Positions 16,785 to 37,112 of a DNA stretch of 64,000 nt are shown piece by piece. The position numbers and the translations under genes are program-made. Numbering within the stretch: the first letter of the stretch is position 1; the number at the start of each line of letters is the position of its first letter. The stretch is taken from the sequence record MH752840.1; one strand, given 5' to 3'. The notes under the pieces are model-generated. The model did not search any database. It saw only the letters and a program-made list of their open reading frames with translations, and was not told where the DNA came from. Source of the stretch: Escherichia phage vB_EcoM-Pr121LW.

Positions 16785-16798
16785 ATCGGAGGACTAGC

Positions 16799-17383
16799 AT
16801 GAAAATACTTCAAGAGTTTAAACTTTACCAACCGGGATCTGGCGAATACCACCCTAACAAGGGAACCAAGGAGCTGACCCCTCAAGAGGTTGAGGATTAC
16901 ACCGCATACACTGGGTATTTTTTACGTAATGATGATGGCGATTGGTATGTGCAGTCACGAACATTGCGACAAGAAAATCCGGGTTGTATCTTCCTACTTG
17001 TTGACGAGAAGGGAATTCTTAAGACATCTACAGAAGAACCTGATGCCCTATGGCCTGCTCCAGGTCTTCGTGTGGTTATCGCCAAAAAAGAAGAGGTACC
17101 AGAAAACATTATGCTTCACCACGACGCTTTGCGTTTAGTTGGTGATGAATTTGTCACAGACAATGAATTCTTTGTTCAACAGGCAGAGGGTGTCATAGAG
17201 ACAGAACTTGCTTGGGCTACTGCTAGAATTGGTGCCTATCAAGACATGATTGACCTTGAATATGATCTTACTGATGACCAGAAACGTAACATCAGAGATT
17301 TGAAAATGTACAGGGTAAAACTTCTTGAAATAGATACATCTAAAGCCCCTGACATTTTCTTCCCGGAGCGACCTACCCTCTAA
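16799..17383 (+). CDS. tail fibre assembly protein (Tfa-like chaperone)
   Basis: C-terminus KMYRVKLLEIDTSKAPDIFFPERP matches conserved Tfa motif (lambda Tfa ...YRVLLNRVDTSTAPDIEWP). Confidence 0.7.
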   Translation: MKILQEFKLYQPGSGEYHPNKGTKELTPQEVEDYTAYTGYFLRNDDGDWYVQSRTLRQENPGCIFLLVDEKGILKTSTEEPDALWPAPGLRVVIAKKEEVPENIMLHHDALRLVGDEFVTDNEFFVQQAEGVIETELAWATARIGAYQDMIDLEYDLTDDQKRNIRDLKMYRVKLLEIDTSKAPDIFFPERPTL

Positions 17384-23900: not shown

Positions 23901-26560
23901 ACATGGATGGGACATCCATGTCCATGCAAATTCCGGTAACAAACGGATACAAACGTGTTGTGATGATCATTAAGTGCGACCTGATAGGTAAACAAGTTCT
24001 TGCAGAAAACGGGACATCCACACATCCTTTTGAGATCGCTCTACACTATCAGTTTGCTGACTCACCTTTTGCAGGGGATAAGAGAATATCTGATACAGAC
24101 GCACAGCGTTGTAAGAAAGTATTGTTGGGTGCAGGTTGGTGGTGGTATGAGTTTGATTTAACAGATAAATTCACCGACACGTCTAAAGTTGTAACAGGAC
24201 TTCGTCTAGACTTTGGCGAGAACATGCACAAAGCTGTTTGTGATGGCACCTATGGTGACCCTACAATATACCTAAAATATGTTTCTTTTGAGCATCCGGA
24301 AGATGTTGTCTACGGTCCAAAACTGAGATTGTTTGGCAGCTGGATTGCAAAAGATAGGGTAGGTATGGGTAAGAAGGTAAGAGGGTTCTTGGTTGATGCA
24401 GGAACAGAAGACATGCTGGTTAATGCAGTATGGCCTGAATTACCTGGGACTCAGTGGGACAACTCAGCCAAATCTGTAAACTGGTTTAACATTCATAGGG
24501 CCATGTGGACCACTAACTGCTACTTGTGGAGAGAGCTTAACGATCAGGCCTTTGGCTTCAGCGATGGTAGAAGGATGGCGATCATTTGCTGGACAACACT
24601 GCAAAGATGTTATGACCATAACTATGAGATTGGAGGCAGGGAATGGAAAAATATCAGGGACAGAATCATAACCAATTTTGCAGACGACAACGGTGGCGGA
24701 GCACATAACTTTGGCACAAGCCGACTCATCCATTTGAACGGATCCTCAGCCTACAAGAAAGAAGGATACTCTGGGTCCATGATTGAGTGGGGTCTGGTAA
24801 AAGATGCTCGTGTGTTGATGGGTCAGCAACTTGCTGCTGCAATAGGGCCGAACGCAGTACAATCTGTTAAACCAGCGTGGTTCGATATCCCATTATGGTC
24901 ATCTGGAACACCAGGAACTGCTGCAATCAACCCTGCCACTGGGGATTTGGAAATCTCCTGGGAAGACTTGAAGCAGGTCGGTGGTTGGGACAAAACAGGG
25001 TATCAGGTTCAGTGGTGGAGAGCTGACGGATCTTTAGCCGCTGATGAGTTTGTTAAGGACAATTTCTACACCATGTCCTCTGCAAAAGCACAGGAATTGT
25101 TCGGTCAGGCAACTCCGTCAACGATCACCATGTCCATGTGCTGTAAAGACAACAGGACTGGAGCTTTGGGGCCAAGGGTTGCTAAGGTTTTCTCAGGTAT
25201 TAAATGGAATCCCTCTGTTCAAAGTGTTTCATGGAAGCAAATAGGTGATAACAAGCTGCTAGTTACCCCCGCCTGTCAGTTCAACGCAACTCTTAACGTT
25301 GATCCTGCTGCTGCGGCAAACTCAGCTAAAGCTTCTGACTTCTCTGTGTCTAACACTGCTATGGCAGATGTGAGGAAGATTGACACGCTGAACGCCAGAA
25401 TTACCTGTAAAAACACTTATGGCACATTCCAGATCATCAACAACTTCACAGATGCTGATTCTAAGGTAGTGAGGACAGCAAGCCAGACTCTGAGTTTAGG
25501 AACTCTGGCCTATGCAGCCCTGATCACTGAACAGTCGGCAACACTCCAAGGAGGTGGTGTAGGCAAGTCTATTACAACACCTGTGTGGAAGCCAAATGAG
25601 TGGGTTGTGTTTGATTTGACTGTGGACTTCTCCAGTGATAATAACTGGACATGGGTAAGGGATTGCTTGTCACAACTGATGGGTGGTCCAAGCTCCGTTA
25701 GTGATAGCCACGACTCCACTGACCCGAGTGTGTTTCAGGTGGGTAAAACTCACCCGGAGACTGGAGCAACTTTGCCTGACAGGAAGTATGCTTTGGTTTG
25801 CATCTCTTACGGAAAAGCAGATGTCACCTTCTCAGGAACACACACTTATAACGGTACATATAACTTCTCAAGGAAGTATAGTCTCAAGGCAGGGAACATT
25901 ATAGATGAGGTTGGTCCGTTATATAACCCTGGCAACGGGATAGGGATTGTAGGCGGCAAACTGCAGATGCAGGAACCTTCTATTACTCCTTCCAACGTGT
26001 CTGGGATCAGGAAGACTTGGGAAAGTAACAATACTGGCATCGCAACTGTGGATGCTACCACCGGACTGGTAACATTTAAAGCTCCCGGTGATGTCACTAT
26101 AACGTTTATAGTTACTGATGATGCAGGGCGCAAAACGTCTTCAACATCTTTTACTGTCAAACAGATGGCACCACAGTGGAGAATGTGGATAGGTACAGCA
26201 ACAAACGGGGCATACCCTAATCCGGCAGGTACTTCTGGTATGAAGACTTTCTCTACAAGCGAACCGATGGAGTACGGCAGCGGTCCTAAGGTAGGACAGA
26301 TGGTATACTTTGGTGCGTATATTCCTGAAATTATAGGGCTTCCGAGAAGTCAGCTTCAGTTGCTGTTTGGGGCTGGTGTTGACGATCTTGCCACTTTCGG
26401 GTATAGCGACAACATCGAGGCTGCAAGGAGTTCAGGATGGGTAGGGTTCAGAATGGAGTCTGGAAAGGAAGGCAGGATTCTAGGGACAGCCTCTATAGGT
26501 GTTATGTTCCCTGGTGACCAGCAGTATCGCCTGAAAGCCTACGCAACTTTCTCTCTTTAA
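20924..26560 (+). CDS. large structural protein (1878 aa) with Ig-like Big_2-type domain
   Basis: Longest ORF in window; near C-terminus ITPSNVSGIRKTWESNNTGIATVDATTGLVTFKAPGDVTITFIVTDDAGRKTSSTSFTV resembles bacterial Ig-like group 2 domain; ends at bidirectional terminator. Confidence 0.6.
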   Translation: MLPIPLLKLGRHFLDKRGGIKELAVLSYPIDNSDGTSNTVSYVNSLAILFDDGQLNITGYNRFGECRTGDLDTINYPNEAAWNVDHVWRADRAFVIRTFDNKFFYIGCTAGLIGSEAAGGNDVCVREWTPLPEQIVTGLHLDTHPERLVEVMGGVNNTVWVIAAPEADGMLHLYGSGNNTYGSLHVDKNQHATPVKIGETSESPETGPWKNPRINCEVHDNSVIFGGPNGFWIAGYDFLRNNSKNALVYPAEHVTLDQFKGIPVGETWKGFMCGPNGAIIATERMHKPDDQQLVNVFYGQDVWGDDTWRSLNITYTHEVIMARGYGTSGIFFNNGTKQYRGFSRNLCNDIGAQSANNNPRANFIHYRALATAKFVEQTEPVSWTESVYFQGIHREGFLGTFCVVNGKLWWSGIPRGSFSGSNNLFGGRLNSQGFTEIPENWYKNVPVDSWGIEDIFDVNGVSNASNIYIGDTVKMKLKPQPEGATFIIDKIELVNAAGTVVTDANYQFSTNWNHGGANEVVVTQYNRNINRRGLYSIKITYHDKHGTGRTYTTRTLNWNTIVPAYPSDGKWHTVGRNKQFHVNDTVYFGLNGTQPAVEGDTSYMVRLHRMDAGSVTYDVTQEIYDQRRATYDNIVKTQALWEFNPNGKGGKMLQVNEQNGTSLTVHEHPDPWPDPGKPHPGARTLKIVSHDAGYFGIRWEATVRYADGTTNNIGITLGGTSEDNSLKIAYTPRGISIDNMDVVRNGYGDVNVKVTLGEHLGGERIIMYAFDHDPRTNGTYANQAWSYLINAPEPNTKEFYYGMKRDVCKKTGTHDWIAICVKDERTAWDEPVNRWFIGIPTRSDKYVAEYIVCMGGTNLNLCWNEDANKYSDYDYMRDISCNQWFSQSTGYPPRQARVNPAIFTDTQVFLTKQANEVQTFKNKYDPNKWFYNCYGAFFWGPGELPGGGSCLNEATYASDYIMGQVKKYKIIPGPETLGNAVDPYIIMTALRSNMDGTSMSMQIPVTNGYKRVVMIIKCDLIGKQVLAENGTSTHPFEIALHYQFADSPFAGDKRISDTDAQRCKKVLLGAGWWWYEFDLTDKFTDTSKVVTGLRLDFGENMHKAVCDGTYGDPTIYLKYVSFEHPEDVVYGPKLRLFGSWIAKDRVGMGKKVRGFLVDAGTEDMLVNAVWPELPGTQWDNSAKSVNWFNIHRAMWTTNCYLWRELNDQAFGFSDGRRMAIICWTTLQRCYDHNYEIGGREWKNIRDRIITNFADDNGGGAHNFGTSRLIHLNGSSAYKKEGYSGSMIEWGLVKDARVLMGQQLAAAIGPNAVQSVKPAWFDIPLWSSGTPGTAAINPATGDLEISWEDLKQVGGWDKTGYQVQWWRADGSLAADEFVKDNFYTMSSAKAQELFGQATPSTITMSMCCKDNRTGALGPRVAKVFSGIKWNPSVQSVSWKQIGDNKLLVTPACQFNATLNVDPAAAANSAKASDFSVSNTAMADVRKIDTLNARITCKNTYGTFQIINNFTDADSKVVRTASQTLSLGTLAYAALITEQSATLQGGGVGKSITTPVWKPNEWVVFDLTVDFSSDNNWTWVRDCLSQLMGGPSSVSDSHDSTDPSVFQVGKTHPETGATLPDRKYALVCISYGKADVTFSGTHTYNGTYNFSRKYSLKAGNIIDEVGPLYNPGNGIGIVGGKLQMQEPSITPSNVSGIRKTWESNNTGIATVDATTGLVTFKAPGDVTITFIVTDDAGRKTSSTSFTVKQMAPQWRMWIGTATNGAYPNPAGTSGMKTFSTSEPMEYGSGPKVGQMVYFGAYIPEIIGLPRSQLQLLFGAGVDDLATFGYSDNIEAARSSGWVGFRMESGKEGRILGTASIGVMFPGDQQYRLKAYATFSL

Positions 26561-26571
26561 CAAGCGGTAAA

Positions 26572-26601
26572 TAAAAAGGGGCCAAATGGCCCCTTTCTTT
26601 T
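26572..26601. terminator. bidirectional terminator between convergent operons
   Basis: aaaaaggggccaaatggcccctttcttttt: GC hairpin flanked by A-run and T-run. Confidence 0.75.
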
Positions 26602-26606
26602 TATAA

Positions 26607-26807
26607 TTAGTAATATTCCCAACACGACCCATCTTCAGACGGCTGGACACGCTTGCCTTCATGATCGACATAGGTGTAACCGCAACCTTCGCAGATAACA
26701 GGTGCCGCATAACCTTCCTTCCACTGATCTTCTGTGATCAATCCTTCCAGATCTCTACAGTTAAAACCAAACAACTCTTCAGAACAATCTTTGCAAAAAT
26801 CAGCCAT
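26607..26807 (-). CDS. small zinc-ribbon protein
   Basis: 66 aa with CxxC ... CxxC spacing (CKDC / CEGC). Confidence 0.45.
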   Translation of the reverse strand: MADFCKDCSEELFGFNCRDLEGLITEDQWKEGYAAPVICEGCGYTYVDHEGKRVQPSEDGSCWEYY

Positions 26808-26810
26808 TTC

Positions 26811-27257
26811 TCAGTCCTCGCATTTAACAAATTTTTCTACAGATCCGCCAAGCACAGCTTGTTGCTTGATGGCACTTGCTTCATCATAGTGGATAGACTT
26901 ATGTTCCGTACCTCCAAACTTACCTGTGTGGAAGGTGTGCACCCAAATCTCTTTAGGAAGGGATTTATTCTCTTCCTCCACCAACTCCCACATACCCCAC
27001 AAGTGATCTGTGATATCTTTGATGAAATATCCCTCTCCTAGGTTTGTATTCACACTATAGGCCGATTCGTGATTTCCGCAAATATAACGGAAGGCAGTGT
27101 ACTCTTTTCCTGGTGTGAAGTGGGTATCCATTAGTATAGCTGTTAAAGAATAAGGGTCTCGAAAGCCCAAGAACTTTAGTTTAACAATTTCGACATTTAC
27201 ATCTGCAAGATTGTCCATGACGATCTCCTCTGTTTGGTTGGTGAGATAATCATACAT
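26811..27257 (-). CDS. hypothetical protein with GNHE motif (degenerate calcineurin-like phosphoesterase?)
   Basis: 148 aa; ICGNHES and later HTFHTG resemble metallophosphatase motifs III and the GH motif, but motifs I and II are absent and an in-frame stop lies upstream. Confidence 0.35.
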   Translation of the reverse strand: MYDYLTNQTEEIVMDNLADVNVEIVKLKFLGFRDPYSLTAILMDTHFTPGKEYTAFRYICGNHESAYSVNTNLGEGYFIKDITDHLWGMWELVEEENKSLPKEIWVHTFHTGKFGGTEHKSIHYDEASAIKQQAVLGGSVEKFVKCED

Positions 27258-27382
27258 AGATCTGATGTTAGGGTCAAGCTTAATTTTAAACTATTTTGGA
27301 GAGGTATTTTGTTCAGGAGGGTAATCACATAGGATAGGGCAATTTATGAAGGCACAGGCCTCTTTTGAGGCCTTAAAATCGA

Positions 27383-27763
27383 TTATGACACTTTGACGTA
27401 GCGCTCCGACAGAGCTGGAAAGCCAAAAGCAGTACCTATACTACCGTATGCTACCCACCATTGAAGTTCATCGTGACACCATTTTCCGATCAGGAAGGTG
27501 CTGGGGTAGCGGGTCAGTATTTTGGCATAAGCTTTAGGGTCTGCATCCTCTGGGATAATGATGCTTGGAACATCTTTGTTATGACCACAGCAGCAGTTTA
27601 GAGTTTTCAGTCCTGCCGCCCATAGACTCATGATAGGCTTAGCCATGCACTTATCAAGGCACACACGTTTTTTGCCGTCTCGAAGTTTTTTAGGCACATC
27701 AACGATAACATTTGGATGCTTGGCACCTTTCACTTTCCAATTATAGGATTTACACTTGCACAT
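27383..27763 (-). CDS. Cys-rich hypothetical protein
   Basis: 126 aa with CKC, CLDKC and CCCGH clusters, probable metal-binding. Confidence 0.45.
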   Translation of the reverse strand: MCKCKSYNWKVKGAKHPNVIVDVPKKLRDGKKRVCLDKCMAKPIMSLWAAGLKTLNCCCGHNKDVPSIIIPEDADPKAYAKILTRYPSTFLIGKWCHDELQWWVAYGSIGTAFGFPALSERYVKVS

Positions 27764-27796
27764 CGTTTAATCAGTCTCCATCTAGAAAGCAATACT

Positions 27797-27967
27797 TTAC
27801 TTAAAATCTTTGTCACCTATTACGATTGCACGAATCCACTCATTGTGATGTTCAATGGCGGTAAGGTGTAACATAATGTAGTGATTGTCATTACTAAACA
27901 CGGTGCGGTAAGCTTTAGCAGCACCATGATATAACTTCCACATCAGGTAATGATATCTTCGCCTCAT
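27797..27967 (-). CDS. small hypothetical protein (56 aa)
   Basis: Hand-translated ORF MRRRYHYLMWKLYHGAAKAYRTV... filling the gap between flanking minus-strand genes; below 60-aa track cutoff. Confidence 0.3.
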   Translation of the reverse strand: MRRRYHYLMWKLYHGAAKAYRTVFSNDNHYIMLHLTAIEHHNEWIRAIVIGDKDFK

Positions 27968-27972
27968 GGCTC

Positions 27973-28443
27973 TTACTCCGGTTCAGGATCTGGGTAATCT
28001 TCAATAATAAAGGTCCATCCGTTCCGCTTAGCCTCAGACTTATACTCAATCTCCTTCATTGCGAACTCTAACTGATTTTTAGCCGGAATACATGCCGGAG
28101 AATCATCAATCCAAATATCCGGGTAGATATCAAACTGCGCCAGATAGGCTGCCTTCTGAACACCGCCAGTATAAAACACACCAACATCGAGCTCCTTGCG
28201 CCAATACTCAATGTCCACGTTGTCTTGAGTGATGAATCGGGAAGTCACAAGGTATACTGTCCACCCTTCCTTTTTCAAGTCCCTAATCAGGCGGGAGAAG
28301 ATGAAAGGACTCGCATTAAATGTTCCATCAAAGTCAATGGCAATGATGTGTGTGCCGTGGCGAGTCTCGTATGGATTGCTTGTGGTAAGATTACTGTAGT
28401 TAAAAGGAACTTCTTCCCCGCAGTAGCTGTAGTCCATATTCAC
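27973..28443 (-). CDS. HAD-superfamily phosphatase / nucleotidase
   Basis: Motif I IAIDFDGTF (DxDGT), motif II VYLVTSR, motif IV IWIDDSP. Confidence 0.6.
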   Translation of the reverse strand: MNMDYSYCGEEVPFNYSNLTTSNPYETRHGTHIIAIDFDGTFNASPFIFSRLIRDLKKEGWTVYLVTSRFITQDNVDIEYWRKELDVGVFYTGGVQKAAYLAQFDIYPDIWIDDSPACIPAKNQLEFAMKEIEYKSEAKRNGWTFIIEDYPDPEPE

Positions 28444-28715
28444 ACCTTCTCGTTGATAAATTTACGGGCGGTTTGGTGAGTTGTTTCTGCTGTCTTCAGA
28501 ATGATATTAATTTTATTGTCAAGATCATTCATCTCTGCAGTTAATTCAGGAATCTCTCCAGCATGCATAGTGAAATCATACATAGACATGCCCAGAATCT
28601 CATTGATGCGACGGTTGCATTCTGCAGCACGCTGGTTCATTTTCCAAGCTAACACCAAAGCCTCCTGCGTAGCCTCTAGTGCAAAATCTAATACGTCTGC
28701 CTCTTCTTTCGTCAT
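28440..28715 (-). CDS. hypothetical protein
   Basis: 91-aa ORF, start overlaps upstream stop in operon. Confidence 0.45.
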   Translation of the reverse strand: MTKEEADVLDFALEATQEALVLAWKMNQRAAECNRRINEILGMSMYDFTMHAGEIPELTAEMNDLDNKINIILKTAETTHQTARKFINEKV

Positions 28716-28773
28716 CTCAGTCTCTCCTGTTGTATTGTTGGTAGGTGTATGAATACCTTATAACTCACCTTTT

Positions 28774-29340
28774 TTATTCAAACTGCAATAGTAAGTCCAC
28801 CACCGCGCTAGGTCTGTCAACAAATTCCCCAGGTCCACATGCCCACAGAGGGTATCCGTCCACATACCGCCAAATCCAACCTGCAGTGTGGAGTTCGAGC
28901 AGGGCAGTACCGTCCTTACTGTCAACCACTCTTTCCCACAGTGTTGGGCAGCGAAGCTTGAGAATCGGATCACCTCCCTTATACCCGTCCATGTAGATAC
29001 CTATTGCAAAGTTCAGCATCATCTTTTTGTGCACTGATCTCTTACTGAGGGTGCTCATCACTTCCTCTTTGTGAATGTTTGTAAGCTTCTCTTTGGCTAC
29101 CCGCAGATCGTTGCAACCATTGTTCAGCAGATCTTCCAGACACTTGATCCGGAGGTCGTGAATGTCTTTGTCGTGTACCGTTGGCACAGGGTCGTAGCGG
29201 TATAGCACTGTTGATACAAGGTTGCTCGGGTGTGGGTCTGACAGCAACCCATAACCCCAATACTCTTCTGTATCTGAAAGGACAAGACACCCAATGTCTC
29301 TGTCAAGCTTTCCTGTGTTGTAAGCCACATTGACCGCCAT
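28774..29340 (-). CDS. hypothetical protein
   Basis: 188-aa ORF in minus-strand operon. Confidence 0.45.
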   Translation of the reverse strand: MAVNVAYNTGKLDRDIGCLVLSDTEEYWGYGLLSDPHPSNLVSTVLYRYDPVPTVHDKDIHDLRIKCLEDLLNNGCNDLRVAKEKLTNIHKEEVMSTLSKRSVHKKMMLNFAIGIYMDGYKGGDPILKLRCPTLWERVVDSKDGTALLELHTAGWIWRYVDGYPLWACGPGEFVDRPSAVVDLLLQFE

Positions 29341-29342
29341 GA

Positions 29343-29588
29343 CTATAGCTCCACTAGCAAAGTGCTTTCAAAGTGCCGTTCATGCAGACCGTTGTAAGGG
29401 ACCACTTCCACAACACCATCACGGACATACGGGGCCATCATCGTGGTATAATCTCCAAACGGGTTGGTATTGTCACTAACCACAACCACCTTCTGCCCTT
29501 CCTTAGCAGAGTGCCAAATAGATCTACACTTCATCAGGTGTTCGAGAGCTCCAGGTAAAATTTTGTTACGTTCTTTACGGGTCTTCAT
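29343..29588 (-). CDS. hypothetical protein
   Basis: 81-aa ORF, tightly spaced in operon. Confidence 0.4.
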   Translation of the reverse strand: MKTRKERNKILPGALEHLMKCRSIWHSAKEGQKVVVVSDNTNPFGDYTTMMAPYVRDGVVEVVPYNGLHERHFESTLLVEL

Positions 29589-30034
29589 AACAGATATAGC
29601 TCCTTATGAAAGTGGTCTTTTAATTTCTCACTGAGAAACTTCTTGATACCTTCCTCTAAAGTGTTTTCGATGTAGTCCAGCTTAACTGCTTCGATGGACA
29701 TATCATAGATTGCCAGCTCTAAGCTGTCAAGTCCCATCATAGCATGAACCATAAGATTTTCATCTTCAGATACATTCAGGGGACTTCCTATAACATCTGG
29801 AGGCAGAATAGTTTCCCAATTATTCTGGGTGGTAGTTCTCCCGCCATCTACTTTACGGCGCAGTTCGAATGTGTTCTTAGTGTAGAACACTTCATAAGAA
29901 ACGATACGACTGTCACTCTCATAATAAACGAAGTTCAGGTAGGAGCCTAGCCGCAGTCGGCAAACTTCTACCCCAAACCATTGTTTCTTATAAGAATTCA
30001 GGCTAATGCTGTCGCATTCACGCTTGCTCAACAC
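29585..30034 (-). CDS. hypothetical protein
   Basis: 149-aa ORF, overlapping stop/start with neighbour. Confidence 0.45.
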   Translation of the reverse strand: MLSKRECDSISLNSYKKQWFGVEVCRLRLGSYLNFVYYESDSRIVSYEVFYTKNTFELRRKVDGGRTTTQNNWETILPPDVIGSPLNVSEDENLMVHAMMGLDSLELAIYDMSIEAVKLDYIENTLEEGIKKFLSEKLKDHFHKELYLL

Positions 30035-30050
30035 GGCTATCTCCTTTTTG

Positions 30051-30284
30051 TTAATCTTCGTAAATCAGGATTTCTGCTTTAGGTTTTCGTGCTTTCAAGT
30101 CCAGCTCTATCCAGTGCACCATGGCTGTTTCAAGAAAAACAGCTTGGATGCATCCGTCCTCAGCGTGCCCCACCAACATAACAAGATCTTCACCTTCATC
30201 ATCTGCATCACGAACATACAGAATCTCTCCAGATTCAAAGTCTTTCACAACCTGATTGCTGGATAATTTACGAATTTTTGCCAT
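30051..30284 (-). CDS. hypothetical protein
   Basis: 77-aa ORF in operon. Confidence 0.4.
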   Translation of the reverse strand: MAKIRKLSSNQVVKDFESGEILYVRDADDEGEDLVMLVGHAEDGCIQAVFLETAMVHWIELDLKARKPKAEILIYED

Positions 30285-30285
30285 A

Positions 30286-30549
30286 TCAGAAACCCTCTAA
30301 AAAGCTCTTGTAGAAAATAATTTCAGTGTCCACACCTGTCACGATCTTATCGTTTCGGATCTCATCTGTGAGGTAGGTATCGAAACGTAGTACTTGTGTG
30401 GTATTGTCACACATCCACTCAGCTGTGACCATAGCGAAAATCTTAGCATCTTCATTATCTGGTGTGAATGTTACCACCTCGCCGCATTTAAACTTTTCGA
30501 TAGGTTGTGTGTTAGCTTTCGGTTCTGCAATAGTGATTTTCGTGGTCAT
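30286..30549 (-). CDS. hypothetical protein
   Basis: 87-aa ORF in operon. Confidence 0.4.
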   Translation of the reverse strand: MTTKITIAEPKANTQPIEKFKCGEVVTFTPDNEDAKIFAMVTAEWMCDNTTQVLRFDTYLTDEIRNDKIVTGVDTEIIFYKSFLEGF

Positions 30550-30809
30550 TGCTCTTCCTCCATAGTTTCACCAAATACTTCGATACGAGCATCGAGCTCG
30601 GTTGCTTTCAGCTCCCCAACAAAATATTTTAGTTCTTTCTCGTCCAGATCGTAAGCCCACACACAAGAAGAACATGCCACAATCAGTAGCGTAGATACAC
30701 GACCTGGCTCTGTGATCATGCTCACAATGGTTCCCACAGGGAACGTGTTGATAGCTTTTTTAACTGGGCGTTCAGCTTTAATTACTACCTCTGTTGCCAT
30801 AAATAACAT
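30546..30809 (-). CDS. hypothetical protein
   Basis: 87-aa ORF, overlapping stop/start. Confidence 0.4.
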   Translation of the reverse strand: MLFMATEVVIKAERPVKKAINTFPVGTIVSMITEPGRVSTLLIVACSSCVWAYDLDEKELKYFVGELKATELDARIEVFGETMEEEQ

Positions 30810-30815
30810 CCTCTC

Positions 30816-32297
30816 TTACTTAGCGTACTCGATTAATTCCACAGTTTTACCAAAGCTAGGGATATAATTTTTATTATACCCTTCGGTTAGAACCCATAAA
30901 GTATCGTACTTTTTCCACTTGTTGTCAACAGCCTTTTGTTCAAAGTTATGCTCAAAGTATAGGTCGGTCAGGACGATGACATCTTTTGCATTCGGTATGT
31001 TAGCATCCAGATACTCGAACACGCAAGCAGCTGTTGTGCCCCATGTTGAGTGGACCTCATAGTTGATCATCTCGTCTATGTTGCCGCGAGTGTATACTTT
31101 AACCTCTCCAACCTCAGTTGACCAACAGAACATTGTAACCTTAAACTCTTTATACAGATTGCACAATCCTGTGATTTCATTGAACATTTTCTTTAAAGTT
31201 CTTTGAGAGATCGAGCCAGAAACGTCCAAAGCCACCACAATATCTATAGTGTTTTCCGGATTACGACCAGGAACAATAACGTGTTGGTTCTTGTTTATAG
31301 CTCCGACTTTTCGCATTGTGCTGGTCAAAGACCCAGATCGGCGACCAGGTTTTCTGTAGGTCAGTTCGGCCTTTCTTTTAGACAACATACGCTGCTTGAT
31401 GATGTCTATATAATTGATTACAGGCTTACCTCTATTCTTGACAAACTCACGAACCGCCTCAGGGCAACGACCTCCGGAAGCTTGCATTGCTGCCTCAAGC
31501 ATGTCACCAGAGTCCTGCATGGCCTGATCTTTATCAGATTGGCTGATTACAGGTTGTGGCTGATCATACCCCATCGCCTTTCCAAGATCATCACTAGTGC
31601 CACCGTTACCACTCATGTGATCGTCGGTTTGTCGTTTATCTCCTTGAGAGTTCTCGCCTTTACCGCTCTTACTTTTACCGTTATTCTGATCTCTTTGCTT
31701 ATCAAGAACTGCATAAACGTTCTCAGCAATCCATCCATGAAACTTCATGTCGCAGTAGCAGCTGGCTAAGAAGCCAAAAGGCTTACCTTTCACGAACGTA
31801 GTGCTTTTCCCCTTCGGGAAGAAAACACAAGGAGGTTTGCTAAAGTCAACCACAAGGCCTGTGTTGATAACGTGATCACAAGCAATATTGAACAGTTCCG
31901 GCTCAAAGCTTTTACCACGGACCAGGTGATCACAGATAATATGCCCCACCTCATGTGACAGAAGGAAGGCCACCTCTTTCACAGATTTTGGGGAATAGAA
32001 AACTTCAGCCATCTCAAACTGCTCGTCAGTTAGAGAAGCCTTAAGAATAGCCTTGCGTTCATCAGCCAATCCCATAATGAACTCAGGACTGTAATAGATG
32101 CGTTTATGGTCGGTTGCCATGGTGGAGCACCATGTGTGGTTTTCTACGAACTGCAACCCTGACAGTAGTGTGCCATAAAACGGCAGCTTTTCAAGGAGAT
32201 ACATACGTGCAGCCTGCAACATTCTCAGGGCATCATCTTTCTGTGAGGTAATGATTTCTGAACTTCTGCTATCCATTAAAACTCCAGAAGGGGCCAT
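30816..32297 (-). CDS. VWA-domain protein with N-terminal HExxH metallopeptidase-like motif (DUF2201-type)
   Basis: HEVGHIICDH zinc-binding motif in N-terminal half; IVVALDVSGSIS (DxSxS MIDAS) in C-terminal half. Confidence 0.65.
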   Translation of the reverse strand: MAPSGVLMDSRSSEIITSQKDDALRMLQAARMYLLEKLPFYGTLLSGLQFVENHTWCSTMATDHKRIYYSPEFIMGLADERKAILKASLTDEQFEMAEVFYSPKSVKEVAFLLSHEVGHIICDHLVRGKSFEPELFNIACDHVINTGLVVDFSKPPCVFFPKGKSTTFVKGKPFGFLASCYCDMKFHGWIAENVYAVLDKQRDQNNGKSKSGKGENSQGDKRQTDDHMSGNGGTSDDLGKAMGYDQPQPVISQSDKDQAMQDSGDMLEAAMQASGGRCPEAVREFVKNRGKPVINYIDIIKQRMLSKRKAELTYRKPGRRSGSLTSTMRKVGAINKNQHVIVPGRNPENTIDIVVALDVSGSISQRTLKKMFNEITGLCNLYKEFKVTMFCWSTEVGEVKVYTRGNIDEMINYEVHSTWGTTAACVFEYLDANIPNAKDVIVLTDLYFEHNFEQKAVDNKWKKYDTLWVLTEGYNKNYIPSFGKTVELIEYAK

Positions 32298-32309
32298 TGG
32301 CCCCTGTCA

Positions 32310-33353
32310 TTATTTAACGTGTTTGAAAATACCTGCCAACTCGGTCATTGTCATGCGGGTGGTCTTCATAAGATCTGTCATAGCTTTCTCCATAATTGGA
32401 GATACTACCATAAAGTTTCCTTTAGTGAAACCTTTATTCCAGTCGGTCACCAACAGTGGTTTAAGTCCAGCTCCGAGACGTTCACCAGTTAAAGCACAGC
32501 ATTTGCGAATATACGAACTCTTAAATTGGCTGAACGACAGATCAACTTTCATACCTGCATCGTAGAACGTTTGACAATAGAAAGTGTAAGCCTTAGCAAT
32601 CTCAACATCATCAGGCAGTGCAGGAACCTCTTCTGCAATCCCCTCTTCGACCTCCTGAGGCTCTTTTTCCTCTTCAGAGTTCTGTTCTTCAACTTCTTCT
32701 GTCACAGTCTCGTTCACGATGTCTGAAATGTGTTTGTTGGCTGCACGATCAGCCATGAAATTTTTAAAGTCCTGCATTGGTGACATATCTTCTTCCTCTT
32801 CGTCAAATAGTGCTAGTTTATCTTCTTCTGTCCCGTATTGCAAGATGAAATCTTCAAAAGTATAATCACCTTTCAATTTCTCCATACGCTCTTCGCTCAG
32901 GTGGAGCATCATCTGCTGGACAATTTTTCGATCAGTTTTGTCTTTAATCAGGATTGCAGTCTTTTTATCTACCAGACAGTCTTTCAGAGCATTGCACCTC
33001 AACCCTACCACACAACAATTGTCAATTGCGTAAGGACCTTCATCATCTATACGCTCCAAAGATGGGTAGAAAGGATTTCCCAGCCCGTTTTCATCTGTGT
33101 GCATGTCAAAAGGTATAAGGGTATAGTCGCATACTCCATCTCCTAAAAGTTTTTTACCAAATAGGAGGTATTCTTCCCATGACAGGTTGAACTCTATATC
33201 TCGTTTCCGTGCATTATTCTGTTTGCGTCTATATTTTTTAAGCAGGCGCTCTAACTCTTCTGGTGTATAATATTTTTCAAGATTCATGCGTTGTCTCTCG
33301 TGCTCTGTAAGTGAAGAAATCGTATCAATTGTTTCAATAGATGTCAACATCAA
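32310..33353 (-). CDS. hypothetical protein with acidic low-complexity segment; possible degenerate HNH-like region
   Basis: 347 aa; SLERIDDEGPYAIDNCCVVGLRCNALK loosely resembles an HNH core without the catalytic His; EEEEDMS / EEVEEQNSEEEKEPQEVEE acidic stretch. Confidence 0.4.
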   Translation of the reverse strand: MMLTSIETIDTISSLTEHERQRMNLEKYYTPEELERLLKKYRRKQNNARKRDIEFNLSWEEYLLFGKKLLGDGVCDYTLIPFDMHTDENGLGNPFYPSLERIDDEGPYAIDNCCVVGLRCNALKDCLVDKKTAILIKDKTDRKIVQQMMLHLSEERMEKLKGDYTFEDFILQYGTEEDKLALFDEEEEDMSPMQDFKNFMADRAANKHISDIVNETVTEEVEEQNSEEEKEPQEVEEGIAEEVPALPDDVEIAKAYTFYCQTFYDAGMKVDLSFSQFKSSYIRKCCALTGERLGAGLKPLLVTDWNKGFTKGNFMVVSPIMEKAMTDLMKTTRMTMTELAGIFKHVK

Positions 33354-33360
33354 AAACGTG

Positions 33361-33389
33361 TTGACTTTACTCTAAATCTCCGATATAGT
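33361..33389 (+). promoter_or_regulatory. sigma70-type promoter (TTGACT-17-TATAGT) in divergent intergenic region
   Basis: Hexamers with 17-nt spacer upstream of 33430 gene. Confidence 0.55.
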
Positions 33390-33429
33390 GCACCCATTCG
33401 AAAGAAAACTAACATAGGAGCACTTACTT

Positions 33430-34329
33430 ATGGCAAATCTTAACAGTTTTAGTACGCGGTGGAAACAGGACATAACAACCAATCTTTCAGCTGGGGACAT
33501 CCTTTCTGCAATTTACGAGGCTTTAGATGATAAAGCTACTTCAAAAGCGGTTTGTACCAACCCACTAATTCCTGTAGTGATGAAGGTTATTGAGCGTAGA
33601 TTGGTATCTGGGTCTGATAAGTGGACATATTTAGATAATGAAGGACACACCTATTCCAATGGGTATGTCGATATAAAAGTAGAATACGCGGTATCATACC
33701 GCCGGAGCGGTTCTGTAACTTTCAACTTCTCTGGAGGTTTTCGATCTCTGGCTACCTCACCTTTTGTTTCCTCAGAGGAGAAGTATGAGCTGCCATTTCT
33801 TTGGATGATGGCTAACGCGACAGGAAAAACCCCCGTTAGCATCCGAGTAAAATACAACTACAACGGATCTAGTAAGATCTATGCCGAAAGTGTCTCAGCA
33901 AGTTTTTATTTTGTGATGGGGGATGGAATCCTCAAACATATAAAGATGTGCGATATGCATGATGTTATAAATGAAGTGACTGATAAGAATGTTCTAGTGA
34001 AAGACCTCAACAATTTTTATACACCCGGAGACTATTACGTCAGCCGTCCACTGTGCATCTTTAATGCCGCACACCCTCTAGGTGAGTATTTGATCGCCAA
34101 TAGCGATATTGCCAATAACCGCTTCGAGGTAGCAAGAGTTCAGAATGAGGTATTGACATCTTGCAAGAGCGGTGATACGTTTACCGAAGAAGAGATGGGT
34201 GTTTTAGAAATGATGGGATATAAGTGTAGCCTTTGGGTAGATGAGGTGTTTAATGATTGCATCTATGGACAGGATATTTACCCATTAAAGAAGTATACTG
34301 ATACAAGTTTAATTTATGCGAGGGTTTGA
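33430..34329 (+). CDS. hypothetical protein
   Basis: 299-aa ORF, RBS taggag, first gene downstream of promoter 33361-33389. Confidence 0.5.
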   Translation: MANLNSFSTRWKQDITTNLSAGDILSAIYEALDDKATSKAVCTNPLIPVVMKVIERRLVSGSDKWTYLDNEGHTYSNGYVDIKVEYAVSYRRSGSVTFNFSGGFRSLATSPFVSSEEKYELPFLWMMANATGKTPVSIRVKYNYNGSSKIYAESVSASFYFVMGDGILKHIKMCDMHDVINEVTDKNVLVKDLNNFYTPGDYYVSRPLCIFNAAHPLGEYLIANSDIANNRFEVARVQNEVLTSCKSGDTFTEEEMGVLEMMGYKCSLWVDEVFNDCIYGQDIYPLKKYTDTSLIYARV

Positions 34330-34331
34330 CT

Positions 34332-34604
34332 ATGATGAAGGCATGTGGTAATGTATATTACGTCGGTGAACATGTTCAGGCAGACAGTGTGTGGAAATCT
34401 ATTAAGTCCACCACTGACGATGCCTTTCTGAGTGGACTATGTTTCCCCAATCCGGGAGACATCCTCCCTCATCCTGGAGATTTTGTTGTCAACAAGATGG
34501 ACGGTTATACCGTGTGCCTGATGGTTGAAAAAATCTTTTTAGACACTAGACACAATCACCGTCTTGTGTTAAAATTTCAAGAATGTAAAATGACAATTGC
34601 CTAA
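34332..34604 (+). CDS. hypothetical protein
   Basis: ATG 34332 with gaggg 8 nt upstream; track start 34326 is TTG. Confidence 0.4.
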   Translation: MMKACGNVYYVGEHVQADSVWKSIKSTTDDAFLSGLCFPNPGDILPHPGDFVVNKMDGYTVCLMVEKIFLDTRHNHRLVLKFQECKMTIA

Positions 34605-34617
34605 GGAGACCTTACCG

Positions 34618-34974
34618 ATGTCTAAAGTTACTTATCGTGCAGCTATTTACTGCAATGAACACCCAATCAATAATGATGGTCACTGCCTTTTCAAAGAAAA
34701 TCAGTTGGGATGTATTGTCCTCCCTGATGAAGGGGAAGGTTATCTGATTGCATTAACAGGGTTTGAGCCTGAAGCTTTGGAAGCCAATCTGGACTACCTG
34801 GTAGAAGAGGGTGCTGCAGACCTGGTTGCCAATGGCTTCCCCGTAAGCCTTGACGAAGTGGAGCGCTTCATGGGCAATTACCGTGTAGTGCGTGAGTTTA
34901 CTATCGAGGTGGAAACTCCAGAGTGGGGCAGCCATGAAACTAATGCCGAAGAAAAAGAAGAGGGGGTAGAATAA
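34618..34974 (+). CDS. hypothetical protein
   Basis: ATG 34618 with RBS aaggag; track start 34597 is TTG inside upstream gene. Confidence 0.4.
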   Translation: MSKVTYRAAIYCNEHPINNDGHCLFKENQLGCIVLPDEGEGYLIALTGFEPEALEANLDYLVEEGAADLVANGFPVSLDEVERFMGNYRVVREFTIEVETPEWGSHETNAEEKEEGVE

Positions 34975-35231
34975 TGAAAGTGCAGATCTTGACTAATGCC
35001 GAGAAGATGTTTATCGAAGATACACCTTTTGAAGCTGGTGAGCTACAGTTCGTTTATTTTGTTGACTTAGATAAGGTGTTCCCTGCACTGAATCTGGGTC
35101 TGGATGAAGTTCCTCATAAGGTTTTGTGCCAAGTTGTTCGTGCATTAGCGGCAGATGGAGAGTTCCACACCCTTCAAGATGTCCAGACCTACGGGTATCT
35201 TGAACTACAACGAGAAGAAGAGGTGGACTGA
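34974..35231 (+). CDS. hypothetical acidic protein
   Basis: 85-aa ORF, start overlaps upstream stop. Confidence 0.4.
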   Translation: MKVQILTNAEKMFIEDTPFEAGELQFVYFVDLDKVFPALNLGLDEVPHKVLCQVVRALAADGEFHTLQDVQTYGYLELQREEEVD

Positions 35232-35233
35232 TA

Positions 35234-35614
35234 ATGGCCCGGTGGAAGACAACAATTGACCTGCATGATCAGTGGTTAGGACGCATCACTGAAGACGGGA
35301 AACTAGTGGAGTGGGACAATAAGCATGTTAGCGAGTTGGCAAGCATTGTGGCTGGCAAGTTACGCTCCAAGTTCCCTGAACAACTGGATCCTGATAATTC
35401 AAAGTTCGATCCTGAGTTGGAGGATGTTGTATACTACTTCGATACCGTGGATGACTACGATGCGTGGTTTGCAGCACGGGAGCTTTACCCACAAGGCTCT
35501 GCTATGCGCCAGATGGAAGAAGATTATCCTCCGTGCGAGCAATTTAATAGCGCAATGACTTGCCTCTACGATTGGGCAGATAAGAACCTTGTCTGGATTC
35601 GGACTGCATTTTAG
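35234..35614 (+). CDS. hypothetical protein
   Basis: 126-aa ORF, RBS aggtgga. Confidence 0.45.
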   Translation: MARWKTTIDLHDQWLGRITEDGKLVEWDNKHVSELASIVAGKLRSKFPEQLDPDNSKFDPELEDVVYYFDTVDDYDAWFAARELYPQGSAMRQMEEDYPPCEQFNSAMTCLYDWADKNLVWIRTAF

Positions 35615-35658
35615 TGGGCAGGAATGGCGGCAAGGATGCTGCTTAAGGAGTAGTAGAG

Positions 35659-35928
35659 ATGTTATACCAGCAATATGAACTTCGTGCAGAAAAAGAGTTA
35701 AATTTTGACAAAGATATTCACAGATATTATTATGGGAAAGTTAGAGGGCAAGCAAGAAAGTGTACTCCAACACTCTTTTATGCCAGCAGACGACTAGCGC
35801 CAGAAGAGGCAACAGCAGAAAGGGTTGCGTACAACTGGAGAGTCACGTATGATATTGACAGATCCGATGTGATATCTGTTTTGGAAAACTTTGAAAACAC
35901 TTACACACAAGTAGAGGACTTTTACTAA
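35659..35928 (+). CDS. hypothetical protein
   Basis: 89-aa ORF, RBS aaggag. Confidence 0.4.
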   Translation: MLYQQYELRAEKELNFDKDIHRYYYGKVRGQARKCTPTLFYASRRLAPEEATAERVAYNWRVTYDIDRSDVISVLENFENTYTQVEDFY

Positions 35929-37112
35929 TGTCAAGAAACGTATTTGAAAGTGGTCAAATCACTGTCCGTGAGTTGCCAGCTATCATTCAGTTTGCCCAGC
36001 GTCATAACCGATCTGTCCTGATTTTAGGACCAATGGGCGTGGGAAAGAGCCAAGTGATGAAGCAGATCGCCGATAATATGTTCGGTGAGCGAGATGATAA
36101 CTTGGTTGACGTGCGACTGTCAGATAAAGATCCTGCCGACTTATCTGGGCTACCTATCCCTGTAGAAGCGGATGGAACTACACGTACAGTATTTGCAATT
36201 CCAGAATTTTGGCCTGCGGATCCTGACTGGAGCGGAATTATCTTTCTGGATGAGCTCACTCATGCAGATAACTACCTGCAAAAGGTTGCAATGCAAATTA
36301 TGCTCGACCACAAGTGCGGTACCTATGCATTCCCTAAGGGTTCTGTTTTTGTGGCTGCTGGTAACCGTTCTACAGATGGTGCGGTTCTTTCGGCGCTCGA
36401 AGCCCCTCTGGCTAACCGTTTTATCATTGTAGAAGTTACAAGCAATGCAGAGGTGTTTATTGAGGACTACGCATTCCTTAATGGGGTGCACTCCTCTGTA
36501 ATTGGATATCTGAAAAGAGTTCCATCAGCTATCGATAATTATGAGGCCATGGCTGAGATTAATTGTCCATCTTTTGCCACACCACGATCTTGGGTTGCTG
36601 CATCTGATATCTTGCACGATTTTGACAGCGGTATTATTTCTGACGCTATGGCCCGTGTTCTTCTGCAAGGTGCTATCGGTCACACTGCAGCGGTAGAGAT
36701 CTGGACTTACCACACCAAGAAACGCAACTTACCGGAAATCGGTCGGATTATGGCAGGAGGTTGCAAAGAATATGTAGGTCCTAAACAGCCAGACATCTTG
36801 TGGATTCTTGGATCTGAAGGCTGTATCGCTATTCGTAATATGATGGAAAATGCAAGTATCTCCGACGAAGATCTTGTTAGCTGTGTGGCAAACTTCCTCG
36901 ATTTCCTTTGGGAAAACTTCAAGGACGAGAACCGAGATTTTGTATTCTCGGTCTTTATGGCGATGATGAAACCTAATGCCTTAGGAAATGCCTTGCTTAT
37001 CGGTAAAGGTCGTGACAAGATTGTTGCTCAGCTGATCAAAGCATACCCAAACCTGATGAAGATTGTAAAAGAGTTTGGTGAAGAGTTTAGCGCCATTTTG
37101 GCTAAAGCTTAA
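35928..37112 (+). CDS. AAA+ ATPase, MoxR/AAA_5-like
   Basis: Walker A LILGPMGVGKSQV and Walker B IIFLDELTHAD; size and layout typical of MoxR-type ATPases. Confidence 0.65.
   Translation: MSRNVFESGQITVRELPAIIQFAQRHNRSVLILGPMGVGKSQVMKQIADNMFGERDDNLVDVRLSDKDPADLSGLPIPVEADGTTRTVFAIPEFWPADPDWSGIIFLDELTHADNYLQKVAMQIMLDHKCGTYAFPKGSVFVAAGNRSTDGAVLSALEAPLANRFIIVEVTSNAEVFIEDYAFLNGVHSSVIGYLKRVPSAIDNYEAMAEINCPSFATPRSWVAASDILHDFDSGIISDAMARVLLQGAIGHTAAVEIWTYHTKKRNLPEIGRIMAGGCKEYVGPKQPDILWILGSEGCIAIRNMMENASISDEDLVSCVANFLDFLWENFKDENRDFVFSVFMAMMKPNALGNALLIGKGRDKIVAQLIKAYPNLMKIVKEFGEEFSAILAKA

Follow-up and report, generated by a model that had tools for sequence, protein, structure and literature searches.

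What does a run of fourteen leftward genes do between the tail and replication modules of a virulent phage, and does its content change from one relative to the next? The question is raised by positions 26607–33353 of a 64,000-nucleotide stretch of Escherichia phage vB_EcoM-Pr121LW (MH752840.1), the whole of which is called the window here. An initial annotation, prepared from the sequence alone, described this region as an operon of phosphatase and metal-binding proteins at a variable site suited to host-takeover or anti-defense genes. All fourteen minus-strand open reading frames (ORFs, numbered 1–14 from left to right) that it listed are present at their coordinates, with a tail fiber gene to the left and helicase and polymerase genes to the right, and its emphasis on phosphatases and metal binding passed over the two most informative members, an Srd-like gene (ORF14) and a DUF2201 gene (ORF13). 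The region is explained here, with a probability of about 0.8, as an early, leftward-transcribed unit of a Vequintavirus that corresponds to genes 11–26 of phage rV5 and encodes accessory host-interaction products, and a mechanism is proposed for it.

Identity and coding status of the block

A megablast search with positions 26400–33600 against phage genomes returned 121 matching records, nearly all of them from Escherichia rV5-like phages of the genus Vequintavirus, and the source phage is a Vequintavirus (rV5-like myophage). The block corresponds to ORF11–ORF26 of rV5, with a protein identity of 82–100%, and to bas56_0041–0054 of phage AlexBoehm, while its proteins are 93–100% identical to those of Bas54 (phage MaxBurger), apart from a swapped gene in the ORF2 slot. 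When each ORF was compared with its counterparts in rV5, AlexBoehm, and FFH2, the substitutions were mostly synonymous, and the ratio of non-synonymous to synonymous substitution rates (dN/dS) was 0–0.2 wherever synonymous changes exist, except for one comparison of ORF12 (0.5). The fourteen ORFs are real genes under purifying selection, with weaker support for ORF4. Transposon sequencing of Bas54, reported in a 2025 preprint, found bas54_0042–0056 to be non-essential without exception on E. coli K-12, with reduced fitness for 0043 (bioRxiv 10.1101/2025.11.20.689424).

Transcription signals of the leftward unit

The unit opens at a near-consensus sigma70 promoter (33319–33347, minus strand; TTGACA, a 17-nt spacer, TACGAT, and an extended −10 TG), which is P11 of rV5 and is annotated as a promoter in the rV5 record as well. 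It stands back to back with a divergent rightward promoter (33361–33389, plus strand; TTGACT, a 17-nt spacer, and TATAGT). At the other end, the block closes at a bidirectional intrinsic terminator, as the initial annotation had recognized. This element (26575–26596), shared with the convergent tail fiber gene, consists of a GC-rich 9-bp hairpin between an upstream AAATAAAAA and a downstream TTTCTTTTT; it can act both ways because an A-run precedes the hairpin and a T-run trails it. Two rho-independent terminators are annotated at the same position in the rV5 record and also appear in the rV5 paper (PMC3606486).

Two further signals lie near the distal end. A hairpin after ORF3 (27356–27373, minus strand; AGGCCTC-AAAA-GAGGCCT, followed by a weak T-tract) has a stem that is invariant in the window, rV5, AlexBoehm, and FFH2 and is possibly a weak terminator or an RNA-stabilizing element. 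Downstream of it, a sigma70-like promoter (27249–27277, minus strand; TTGACC, a 17-nt spacer, and TATGAT) would serve the distal two genes; its −35 element is kept in four phages, and the gene swap in FFH2 starts just past it. An Rfam search found no RNA family within 26000–36000.

These signals also bear on two gene starts in the initial annotation, where two 5′ ends had been over-extended. ORF2, first called to 27257, most likely starts at ATG 27218 because a GAGGAG ribosome-binding site precedes this codon and the promoter at 27277–27249 lies upstream of it, giving a protein of 135 amino acids (aa) as in rV5 and phrog_15992. For ORF14, first called to 33353, the operon promoter at 33347–33319 falls inside the longer 347-codon frame, which makes ATG 33287 the most likely start; GAGAG precedes this codon, and the resulting 325 aa match the annotation of the BASEL phages.

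Under the mechanism proposed, host sigma70 RNA polymerase would start at 33347–33319, read the fourteen genes, and stop at 26575–26596, and the hairpin together with the second promoter (27373–27249) would give the last two genes a start of their own. The architecture itself has already been published, because the 2013 rV5 paper describes unit 11–26: four transcription units are proposed in it, one of them “11-26”, the bidirectional terminators and bidirectional promoters of this unit are described, and gp11 is named a probable Srd homologue (Kropinski et al., 2013, Virol J 10:76; PMC3606486). The genes are also found in more than 100 GenBank records. The window shares with rV5 the same genes in the same order, the same divergent promoters, and the same bidirectional terminator, and differs in its intact DUF2201 gene, which is split into ORF12 and ORF13 in the rV5 record, and otherwise by point substitutions. 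Early expression is suggested by promoter type and by analogy; a literature search on early genes and transcription in Vequintavirus found no transcriptome for the genus, a gap that tells against this part of the explanation.

The DUF2201 protein and the MoxR-type ATPase

The largest gene of the block, ORF13 (30816–32297, minus strand), had not been recognized in the initial annotation. By Pfam, its 493-aa product combines an N-terminal HExxH metallopeptidase domain (DUF2201_N, putative metallopeptidase; 3.4e-28, 99.4 bits against a cut-off of 23.2) with a C-terminal VWA domain (DUF2201, VWA-like; 3.6e-11, 43.7 bits against a cut-off of 26.4). Both active sites are maintained, because the HExxH residues H115, E116, and H119, with H124, and the metal ion-dependent adhesion site (MIDAS) residues D358, S360, S362, T421, and D445 are invariant in the orthologues of seven of the most divergent phages. 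Homologues occur in 670 phage records, including Vequintavirinae, N4-like Schitoviridae, jumbo phages, and a Planktothrix phage. Many RefSeq and pharokka-style records label the protein “HNH endonuclease”, a name that comes from phrog_1314 and is unsupported by its DUF2201_N and VWA domains. In the rV5 record (DQ832317, 7441–8902), the division of the gene into two ORFs is caused by a 1-nt indel, and it is probably a sequencing error in that reference because the window, AlexBoehm, FFH2, and Bas54 all carry an unbroken gene.

A candidate partner is encoded outside the block, 3.6 kb from ORF13 and on the opposite strand, by a gene for an AAA+ ATPase annotated as MoxR (35928–37112, plus strand), which matches phrog_1297 at 1.4e-110 and is 99.7% identical to bas54_0063. 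In Certrevirus CB7 and phage W70, a MoxR-type ATPase gene lies immediately upstream of DUF2201 on the same strand, and in Possum, PA5oct, and Pag-Yong1, an annotated ATPase gene lies 1–3.5 kb upstream, again co-directionally; the distances across these five phages are 0.1–3.5 kb. Like the ATPase of the window, those of Possum and Pag-Yong1 belong to phrog_1297, and tblastn identifies the PA5oct ATPase as a homologue as well (E 2e-8). The two genes of the pair lie on either side of a divergent promoter region in the window and in Seunavirus SSE121. ORF13 is a likely partner of the MoxR-type ATPase, as in MoxR AAA+/VWA pairs such as RavA-ViaA, which it resembles in having a VWA domain whose MIDAS is complete, in being encoded not far from an AAA+ ATPase, and in a pairing kept in many phages. 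It differs from those pairs in that the two window genes belong to two operons facing away from a divergent promoter, the VWA partner carries an additional HExxH domain, and the ATPase matches generic AAA models only.

A conditional phenotype has been published for both orthologues. In the Bas54 preprint, bas54_0063 (MoxR) and bas54_0140 are reported as anti-defense genes needed against DS-28 of clinical isolate CFE311, and the resampling of K-12 against the clinical isolate (Extended Data Table 8, sheet Data S6) gives MoxR a log2 fold change (log2FC) of −7.23 and the DUF2201 gene bas54_0055, whose product is 98.6% identical to ORF13, a log2FC of −2.20 with an adjusted p of 0.009 (bioRxiv 10.1101/2025.11.20.689424). 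The orthologues of the Srd-like gene and the HAD gene ORF5 were unaffected in this comparison (bioRxiv 10.1101/2025.11.20.689424).

It is tentatively proposed, at rather less than even odds, that the DUF2201 protein and the MoxR-type ATPase form a two-part counter-defense machine that recognizes a protein of host immunity, DS-28 in E. coli CFE311, and inactivates it by proteolysis. The DUF2201 protein most likely works with the ATPase encoded across the divergent promoters: the ATPase would remodel or present the target, the MIDAS site of the VWA domain would hold it, and the HExxH site would cut it, and this action would help the phage to overcome host defense, DS-28 being the published case. 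A literature search for rV5 together with MoxR found nothing. Several points count against the proposal. The ATPase of the window matches generic AAA models in Pfam and generic AAA or Clp proteins in PDB searches, and its name is the label of the depositors. The authors of the preprint did not name the DUF2201 gene as anti-defense, and the word “metallopeptidase” is absent from its main text. The comparison used the whole clinical isolate rather than isolated DS-28, and the title of Data S6 reads “resampling_K-12_vs_CFE303”, whereas the command line and the wig files name sample 311.

Alternatively, MoxR may act alone or with another partner, the DUF2201 protein having an unrelated role such as maturing or degrading a protein for takeover rather than for counter-defense. 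This account draws on the opposite strands and the 3.6-kb separation of the two genes in the window, on the far weaker effect of DUF2201 (−2.2 against −7.2), and on the fact that the second gene validated against DS-28 is bas54_0140 and not the metallopeptidase; it is nevertheless considered unlikely, as a related ATPase and DUF2201 lie within a few kilobases of each other in every divergent lineage examined, co-directionally in five, and DUF2201 is itself significantly depleted in the same comparison.

ORF9 (29585–30034, minus strand; 149 aa, phrog_6790) may belong to the MoxR–DUF2201 module, because its homologue directly follows the DUF2201 gene in SSE121 and bas54_0051, its Bas54 orthologue, shows a log2FC of −2.28 against the clinical isolate, with a p of 0.028 that becomes 0.195 after adjustment (bioRxiv 10.1101/2025.11.20.689424). 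The label “tail protein” that it carries in many records derives from phrog_6790; neither its domains nor the virion proteins listed in the consulted passages of the rV5 paper lend it support (PMC3606486).

The Srd-like protein

The first gene of the unit, ORF14 (32310–33287, minus strand), encodes an Srd-like protein of 325 aa in which an acidic disordered linker joins two degenerate cores of the HNH fold. The initial annotation had regarded an HNH relationship of this ORF as weak; both homology to Srd of phage T4 and an HNH fold were found. The N-terminal 130 residues match PHROGs named “Srd anti-sigma factor”, “decoy of host sigma70”, “endonuclease VII”, and “HNH endonuclease”, among which phrog_1400 (“Srd anti-sigma factor”) matches at 2e-9, and the family profile aligns with T4 Srd at an hhalign probability of 95.8 and an E of 7e-9 (BLASTP 3e-7). 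The C-terminal domain matches T4 Srd residues 30–80 at an E of 1e-3. Sub-alignments of the N- and C-terminal parts match each other weakly and in the same register (E 0.0025, hhalign probability 11.9), and a BLASTP comparison of the two halves found no repeat. These alignments make it most likely that the Srd core is present twice in ORF14. A word-indexed homologue search yielded 23 close relatives only, and a single-sequence search of the PDB with ORF14 found nothing.

The AlphaFold model of ORF14 has a predicted local distance difference test score (pLDDT) of about 90 in the N-terminal domain and about 85 in the C-terminal domain, with the disordered acidic linker at residues 164–222. The model shows the beta-beta-alpha fold of the HNH family; its match to the HNH nuclease PacI has a probability of 0.99 and a target-based template modeling (TM) score of 0.52, and McrA, Cas9-HNH, and Gme-HNH come next at lower probability. 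Among viral models (BFVD), the matches are phage “anti-sigma/Srd” proteins, including Srd of Acinetobacter phages 133 and Acj9. The family alignment contains no invariant histidine and one conserved cysteine per core, and the Zn-binding cysteines are absent; by eye, the position of the catalytic histidine reads S-x-E-R-I-D (SLERID), against SLERFD in T4 Srd. The fold is expected to be catalytically dead, and ORF14 is not expected to act as a nuclease, because the HNH histidines are absent and the S-x-E-R-I-D motif is as in T4 Srd.

ORF14 resembles T4 Srd, once called an “anti-sigma decoy”, in its N-terminal core (R-x-I-x-F-x-L ... C-x-Y-T/S ... SLER(I/F)D ... GY..N), in its HNH-like fold without a catalytic histidine, and in its position at the head of a transcription unit with a sigma70 promoter, and differs from it in a second, more diverged copy of the core and a disordered acidic linker of about 60 residues. 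T4 Srd is described as binding the N-terminal half of RNase E and stimulating host RNA decay (cited as Qi et al., 2015). By analogy, the Srd-like protein most likely binds a host protein, and a role in RNase E binding that speeds the decay of host mRNA may be suggested for it. This extension is weakened by an identity of about 24% to T4 Srd over the N-terminal core (143 aa), at which RNase E targeting may not transfer, and by the Bas54 orthologue, which is non-essential on K-12 and has no phenotype in the clinical-isolate comparison (log2FC −0.08). A small “HNH” gene between MoxR and DUF2201 in Certrevirus CB7 (11475–11987) was considered as a further Srd relative and rejected, being a homing HNH gene (phrog_99).

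Conservation of the block and a probable exchangeable distal cassette

The initial annotation took the region for one that varies between related phages and holds host-takeover or anti-defense genes. The second part of this description is broadly supported, since the genes are accessory by their dispensability in transposon sequencing and takeover or anti-defense roles are suggested by the Srd homologue and the depletion of DUF2201; the first part does not, for 113 of the 121 matching records carry the block gene for gene, aligning at 90–99% identity with 80% or more of the query at a single location. A hypervariable anti-defense island whose gene content differs from phage to phage is therefore improbable. 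Such an island would account for the replacement of ORF2 by two unrelated genes in FFH2 and Bas54 right after a conserved hairpin and promoter, for the sharing of ORF1 and the C-terminal module of ORF2 with unrelated phage families, and for seven ORFs (3, 4, 6, 7, 10, 11, and 12) that match only PHROGs numbered above 10000 and are undetected in the loci of SSE121, CB7, and W70. It is opposed by the 7.2-kb block being held in one piece in those 113 records, by a gene order that is the same in rV5, AlexBoehm, FFH2, and Bas54 outside the ORF2 slot, by proteins that are 93–100% identical and under strong purifying selection, and by the lack of any PADLOC match of note. PHROGs with numbers above 10000 are taken here to be small families. 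Presence/absence variation, proposed initially as a check on the region, is confined to the ORF2 slot. It had also been reasoned that gene-for-gene conservation combined with housekeeping functions would speak against an anti-defense region; such conservation is found, the ORF2 slot excepted, and the functions are not those of housekeeping.

Beyond the genus, the locus thins out. Only the Srd-like gene, DUF2201, ORF9, the HAD gene, MoxR, and one rightward gene are detectable at the SSE121 locus, and only DUF2201 and MoxR in CB7 and W70. The block is a stable genus-level accessory operon around an older core and not a hotspot, as judged from sequence comparison, because it is kept gene for gene within the genus and few of its genes are detectable in SSE121, CB7, and W70.

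The ORF2 slot is the only position that varies within the genus, with the rV5 type in 88 records and two other genes in FFH2 and Bas54. ORF2 (26811–27218, minus strand; 135 aa) is a fusion of two small modules. Numbered on the longer frame first called, residues 26–95 match phrog_30425, a family of 72-aa proteins, and FFH2 ORF24 (50% identity), and residues 104–148 match stand-alone 48-aa proteins (phrog_3955) in E. coli and Klebsiella phage genomes of about 42–53 kb. Some records name these 48-aa proteins “fusion protein”. Their match to the C-terminal 45 residues of ORF2 (26811–26950) points to the shuffling of modules between unrelated phages. A calcineurin-like phosphoesterase had been suggested for ORF2 from a GNHE motif and is rejected: FFH2 ORF24 reads GIDG at this position, motifs I and II (DxH and GDxxDR) are absent, and no phosphoesterase model of Pfam or NCBIfam matches at an E of up to 0.1. 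By this comparison, the GNHE is a chance match.

Sequences diverge immediately past the promoter at 27277–27249, which itself follows the hairpin at 27356–27373. The distal two genes resemble a small cassette that can be exchanged and has a promoter of its own, because the conserved hairpin and promoter lie just upstream and the divergence starts right after them. The putative cassette is similar to phage morons in its layout, a hairpin and a sigma70-like promoter ahead of one or two small genes that end at a terminator, and in content that swaps between close relatives; it differs in lying inside an early operon of a virulent phage rather than in the late region of a prophage.

Names such as “HNH endonuclease” for ORF13 and ORF14, “tail protein” for ORF9, and “polynucleotide kinase” for the HAD gene, which RefSeq and pharokka-type records bear from the labels of phrog_1314, phrog_3118, and phrog_6790, would make the region a housekeeping or structural block, and this is highly improbable given that all orthologues are non-essential in Bas54, ORF13 is DUF2201_N plus VWA and not HNH, ORF14 has an HNH fold without catalytic histidines or Zn-binding cysteines, the HAD protein is a HAD core of 156 aa with no kinase domain, and gp11–26 are not among the virion proteins named in the consulted passages of the rV5 paper (PMC3606486). 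The operon products are better regarded as accessory host-interaction proteins that would be parts of neither the replication machinery nor the virion.

The mini-HAD phosphatase-like protein

ORF5 (27973–28443, minus strand; 156 aa, likely start ATG 28437) encodes a capless (C0) mini-HAD phosphatase-like protein. It had been identified initially as a HAD phosphatase with intact motifs, and this is borne out by motifs kept throughout its family and by structural matches to HAD proteins alone. A word-indexed search gave only five close relatives, and an exhaustive representative search with HMMER was needed to recover the family, which comprises 572 related clusters, mostly of 90–130 aa, that align to ORF5 residues 33–120. 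Among 71 aligned members, D37, D39, K97, and W111 are invariant, and T41, T67, R69, D113, D114, and P116 are kept in at least 90%. HAD motifs I–IV are all present in canonical order, motif I following the strand at residues 33–37 of the model.

The AlphaFold model shows a bare Rossmannoid core without a cap, with a pLDDT above 95 at residues 31–120. Foldseek matches in the PDB with probabilities of 0.96–1.0 are all HAD structures (2voy P-domain, 3n07, 1wzc, 3e81, 1k1e, and AphA), representing the P-domain of a P-type ATPase, KDO-8-P, KDN-9-P, and mannosyl-3-phosphoglycerate phosphatases, and AphA, with BT_0820 at 0.92. The TM-scores are modest (0.33–0.43 on the query), since the termini, which are modeled at lower confidence, take up about 60 of the 156 residues. 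Membership of ORF5 in the HAD phosphatase superfamily is confirmed by motif conservation and by the predicted structure. Against this assignment stands the absence of any match to a Pfam or NCBIfam model, the curated libraries having missed the family. A single-sequence search of the PDB found nothing. Compared with capless HADs such as the KDO-8-P phosphatase YrbI and the KDN-9-P phosphatase, ORF5 has the same Rossmannoid core and motifs I–IV with no cap insertion, and differs in a core of about 90 residues (33–120), the lack of a curated Pfam or NCBIfam model, and an identity of 15–26% to solved HADs.

ORF5 is 47.7% identical to gp119 of SSE121, whose gene directly follows that of a MazG-like pyrophosphatase, gp118, in the SSE121 interval 16177–16898. 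Three members of the ORF5 family weakly match the Pfam 5′-nucleotidase model. The MazG-like neighbor and these matches are hints of a nucleotide substrate and nothing more; the enzyme would most likely dephosphorylate a small phosphomonoester, possibly a nucleotide.

Zn-ribbon, Cys/His-cluster, and genus-restricted products

Beyond these, the operon encodes a probable Zn-ribbon protein that is shared horizontally, a protein with a Cys/His cluster, and seven ORFans confined to the genus. ORF1 (26607–26807, minus strand; rV5 ORF26) encodes a probable Zn-ribbon protein of 66 aa, in agreement with the initial annotation, with CxxC at residues 5/8 and 39/42 and a match to phrog_2210 at 1.7e-35. The two knuckles, C5-x2-C8 and C39-x2-C42, are found in the window and FFH2 and agree with a Zn-ribbon pattern. 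Its dN/dS is 0.02–0.11, and the Bas54 orthologue is non-essential. ORF1 is present in 835 phage records, among them those of Felixounavirus (about 70% identity) and of several Salmonella/E. coli phages of 106–122 kb that are presumably T5-like (about 60%). This conservation is unusually high across unrelated virulent enterobacterial phages and suggests a common host target.

ORF3 (27383–27763, minus strand; rV5 ORF24) encodes a 126-aa protein with the cysteine cluster noticed initially. C2, C4, H16, C39, and H61 are invariant in all nine aligned sequences, and CCC at residues 57–59 is kept in eight of the nine; the protein is a probable Zn binder. It matches phrog_12958 only and has a dN/dS of 0.03–0.06; no match was found in Pfam, NCBIfam, or PADLOC, or in the PDB by single-sequence and family-profile searches, and a word-indexed search gave 11 close relatives only.

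The other small genes, all on the minus strand, are mostly ORFans, each matching a single PHROG. ORF4 (27797–27967; 56 aa, phrog_12006) is restricted to the genus; its dN/dS of 0.14 against rV5 fits a constrained coding sequence, and all of its two or three differences from AlexBoehm and FFH2 are non-synonymous, which leaves its coding support weaker than that of the other ORFs. ORF6 (28440–28715; 91 aa, phrog_12604) has a stop that overlaps the start of the HAD gene, and its changes against rV5 and AlexBoehm are all synonymous. ORF7 (28774–29340; 188 aa, phrog_12232) is genus-restricted, with 98–99.5% protein identity in relatives. ORF8 (29343–29588; 81 aa, phrog_4868) shows only synonymous changes and has weak relatives in Cronobacter, Pectobacterium, and Klebsiella phages of about 147–150 kb. 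ORF10 (30051–30284; 77 aa, phrog_12046), ORF11 (30286–30549; 87 aa, phrog_12861, only synonymous changes), and ORF12 (30546–30809; 87 aa, phrog_10698) are consecutive; ORF10 weakly resembles ORF11 (phmmer E of about 0.01 in a set of 20 sequences), the mutual E values of the three are about 0.01–0.2, and they may be old tandem paralogues. Searches of the small ORFs in Pfam, NCBIfam, and PADLOC returned only sub-threshold noise (spectrin, Lar_N, Kelch, Cas12a, and similar).

Neighboring genes and records

The left neighbor of the block is a gene for an 1878-aa lateral tail fiber (20924–26560, plus strand), convergent on the shared terminator. Its Bas54 counterpart is non-essential on K-12 and has a log2FC of −2.23 in the clinical-isolate comparison, a depletion that fits the host-specific use of alternative fibers. 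The rightward side holds six small rightward genes, the AAA+ ATPase gene, and a rIIA-like gene, followed by PIF1/Dda-like and DnaB-like helicases and a family A DNA polymerase. The first of the rightward genes (33430–34329, plus strand) is labeled “putative alpha 1-3 fucosyltransferase” in rV5-like records, a name that looks unfounded; it has no Pfam match, matches only phrog_12338, a PHROG with no assigned function, and is non-essential in Bas54. Sixteen “Campylobacter phage” records (MG0656xx, host C. jejuni) are 95–97% identical to the block, and their host labels look doubtful, through contamination or mislabeling.

Significance for Vequintavirus and related phages

As a genomic feature, the operon changes nothing, being an ordinary accessory early operon. 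The analysis cleans up its annotation: the HNH endonuclease name is wrong for ORF13, the tail-protein name of ORF9 lacks support, the GNHE phosphoesterase drops out, and two start codons should be shifted. Two families are flagged as leads, namely, the uncurated mini-HAD family of ORF5, with about 570 clusters, and the Zn-ribbon protein ORF1, found at 60–70% identity in unrelated virulent enterobacterial phages. A reported anti-defense ATPase is now tied to a probable metallopeptidase partner, and the pair is widespread in phages. If the tentative proposal were true, the ATPase–DUF2201 pair would be a widespread ATP-driven anti-defense protease, of which the published screen named only the ATPase.

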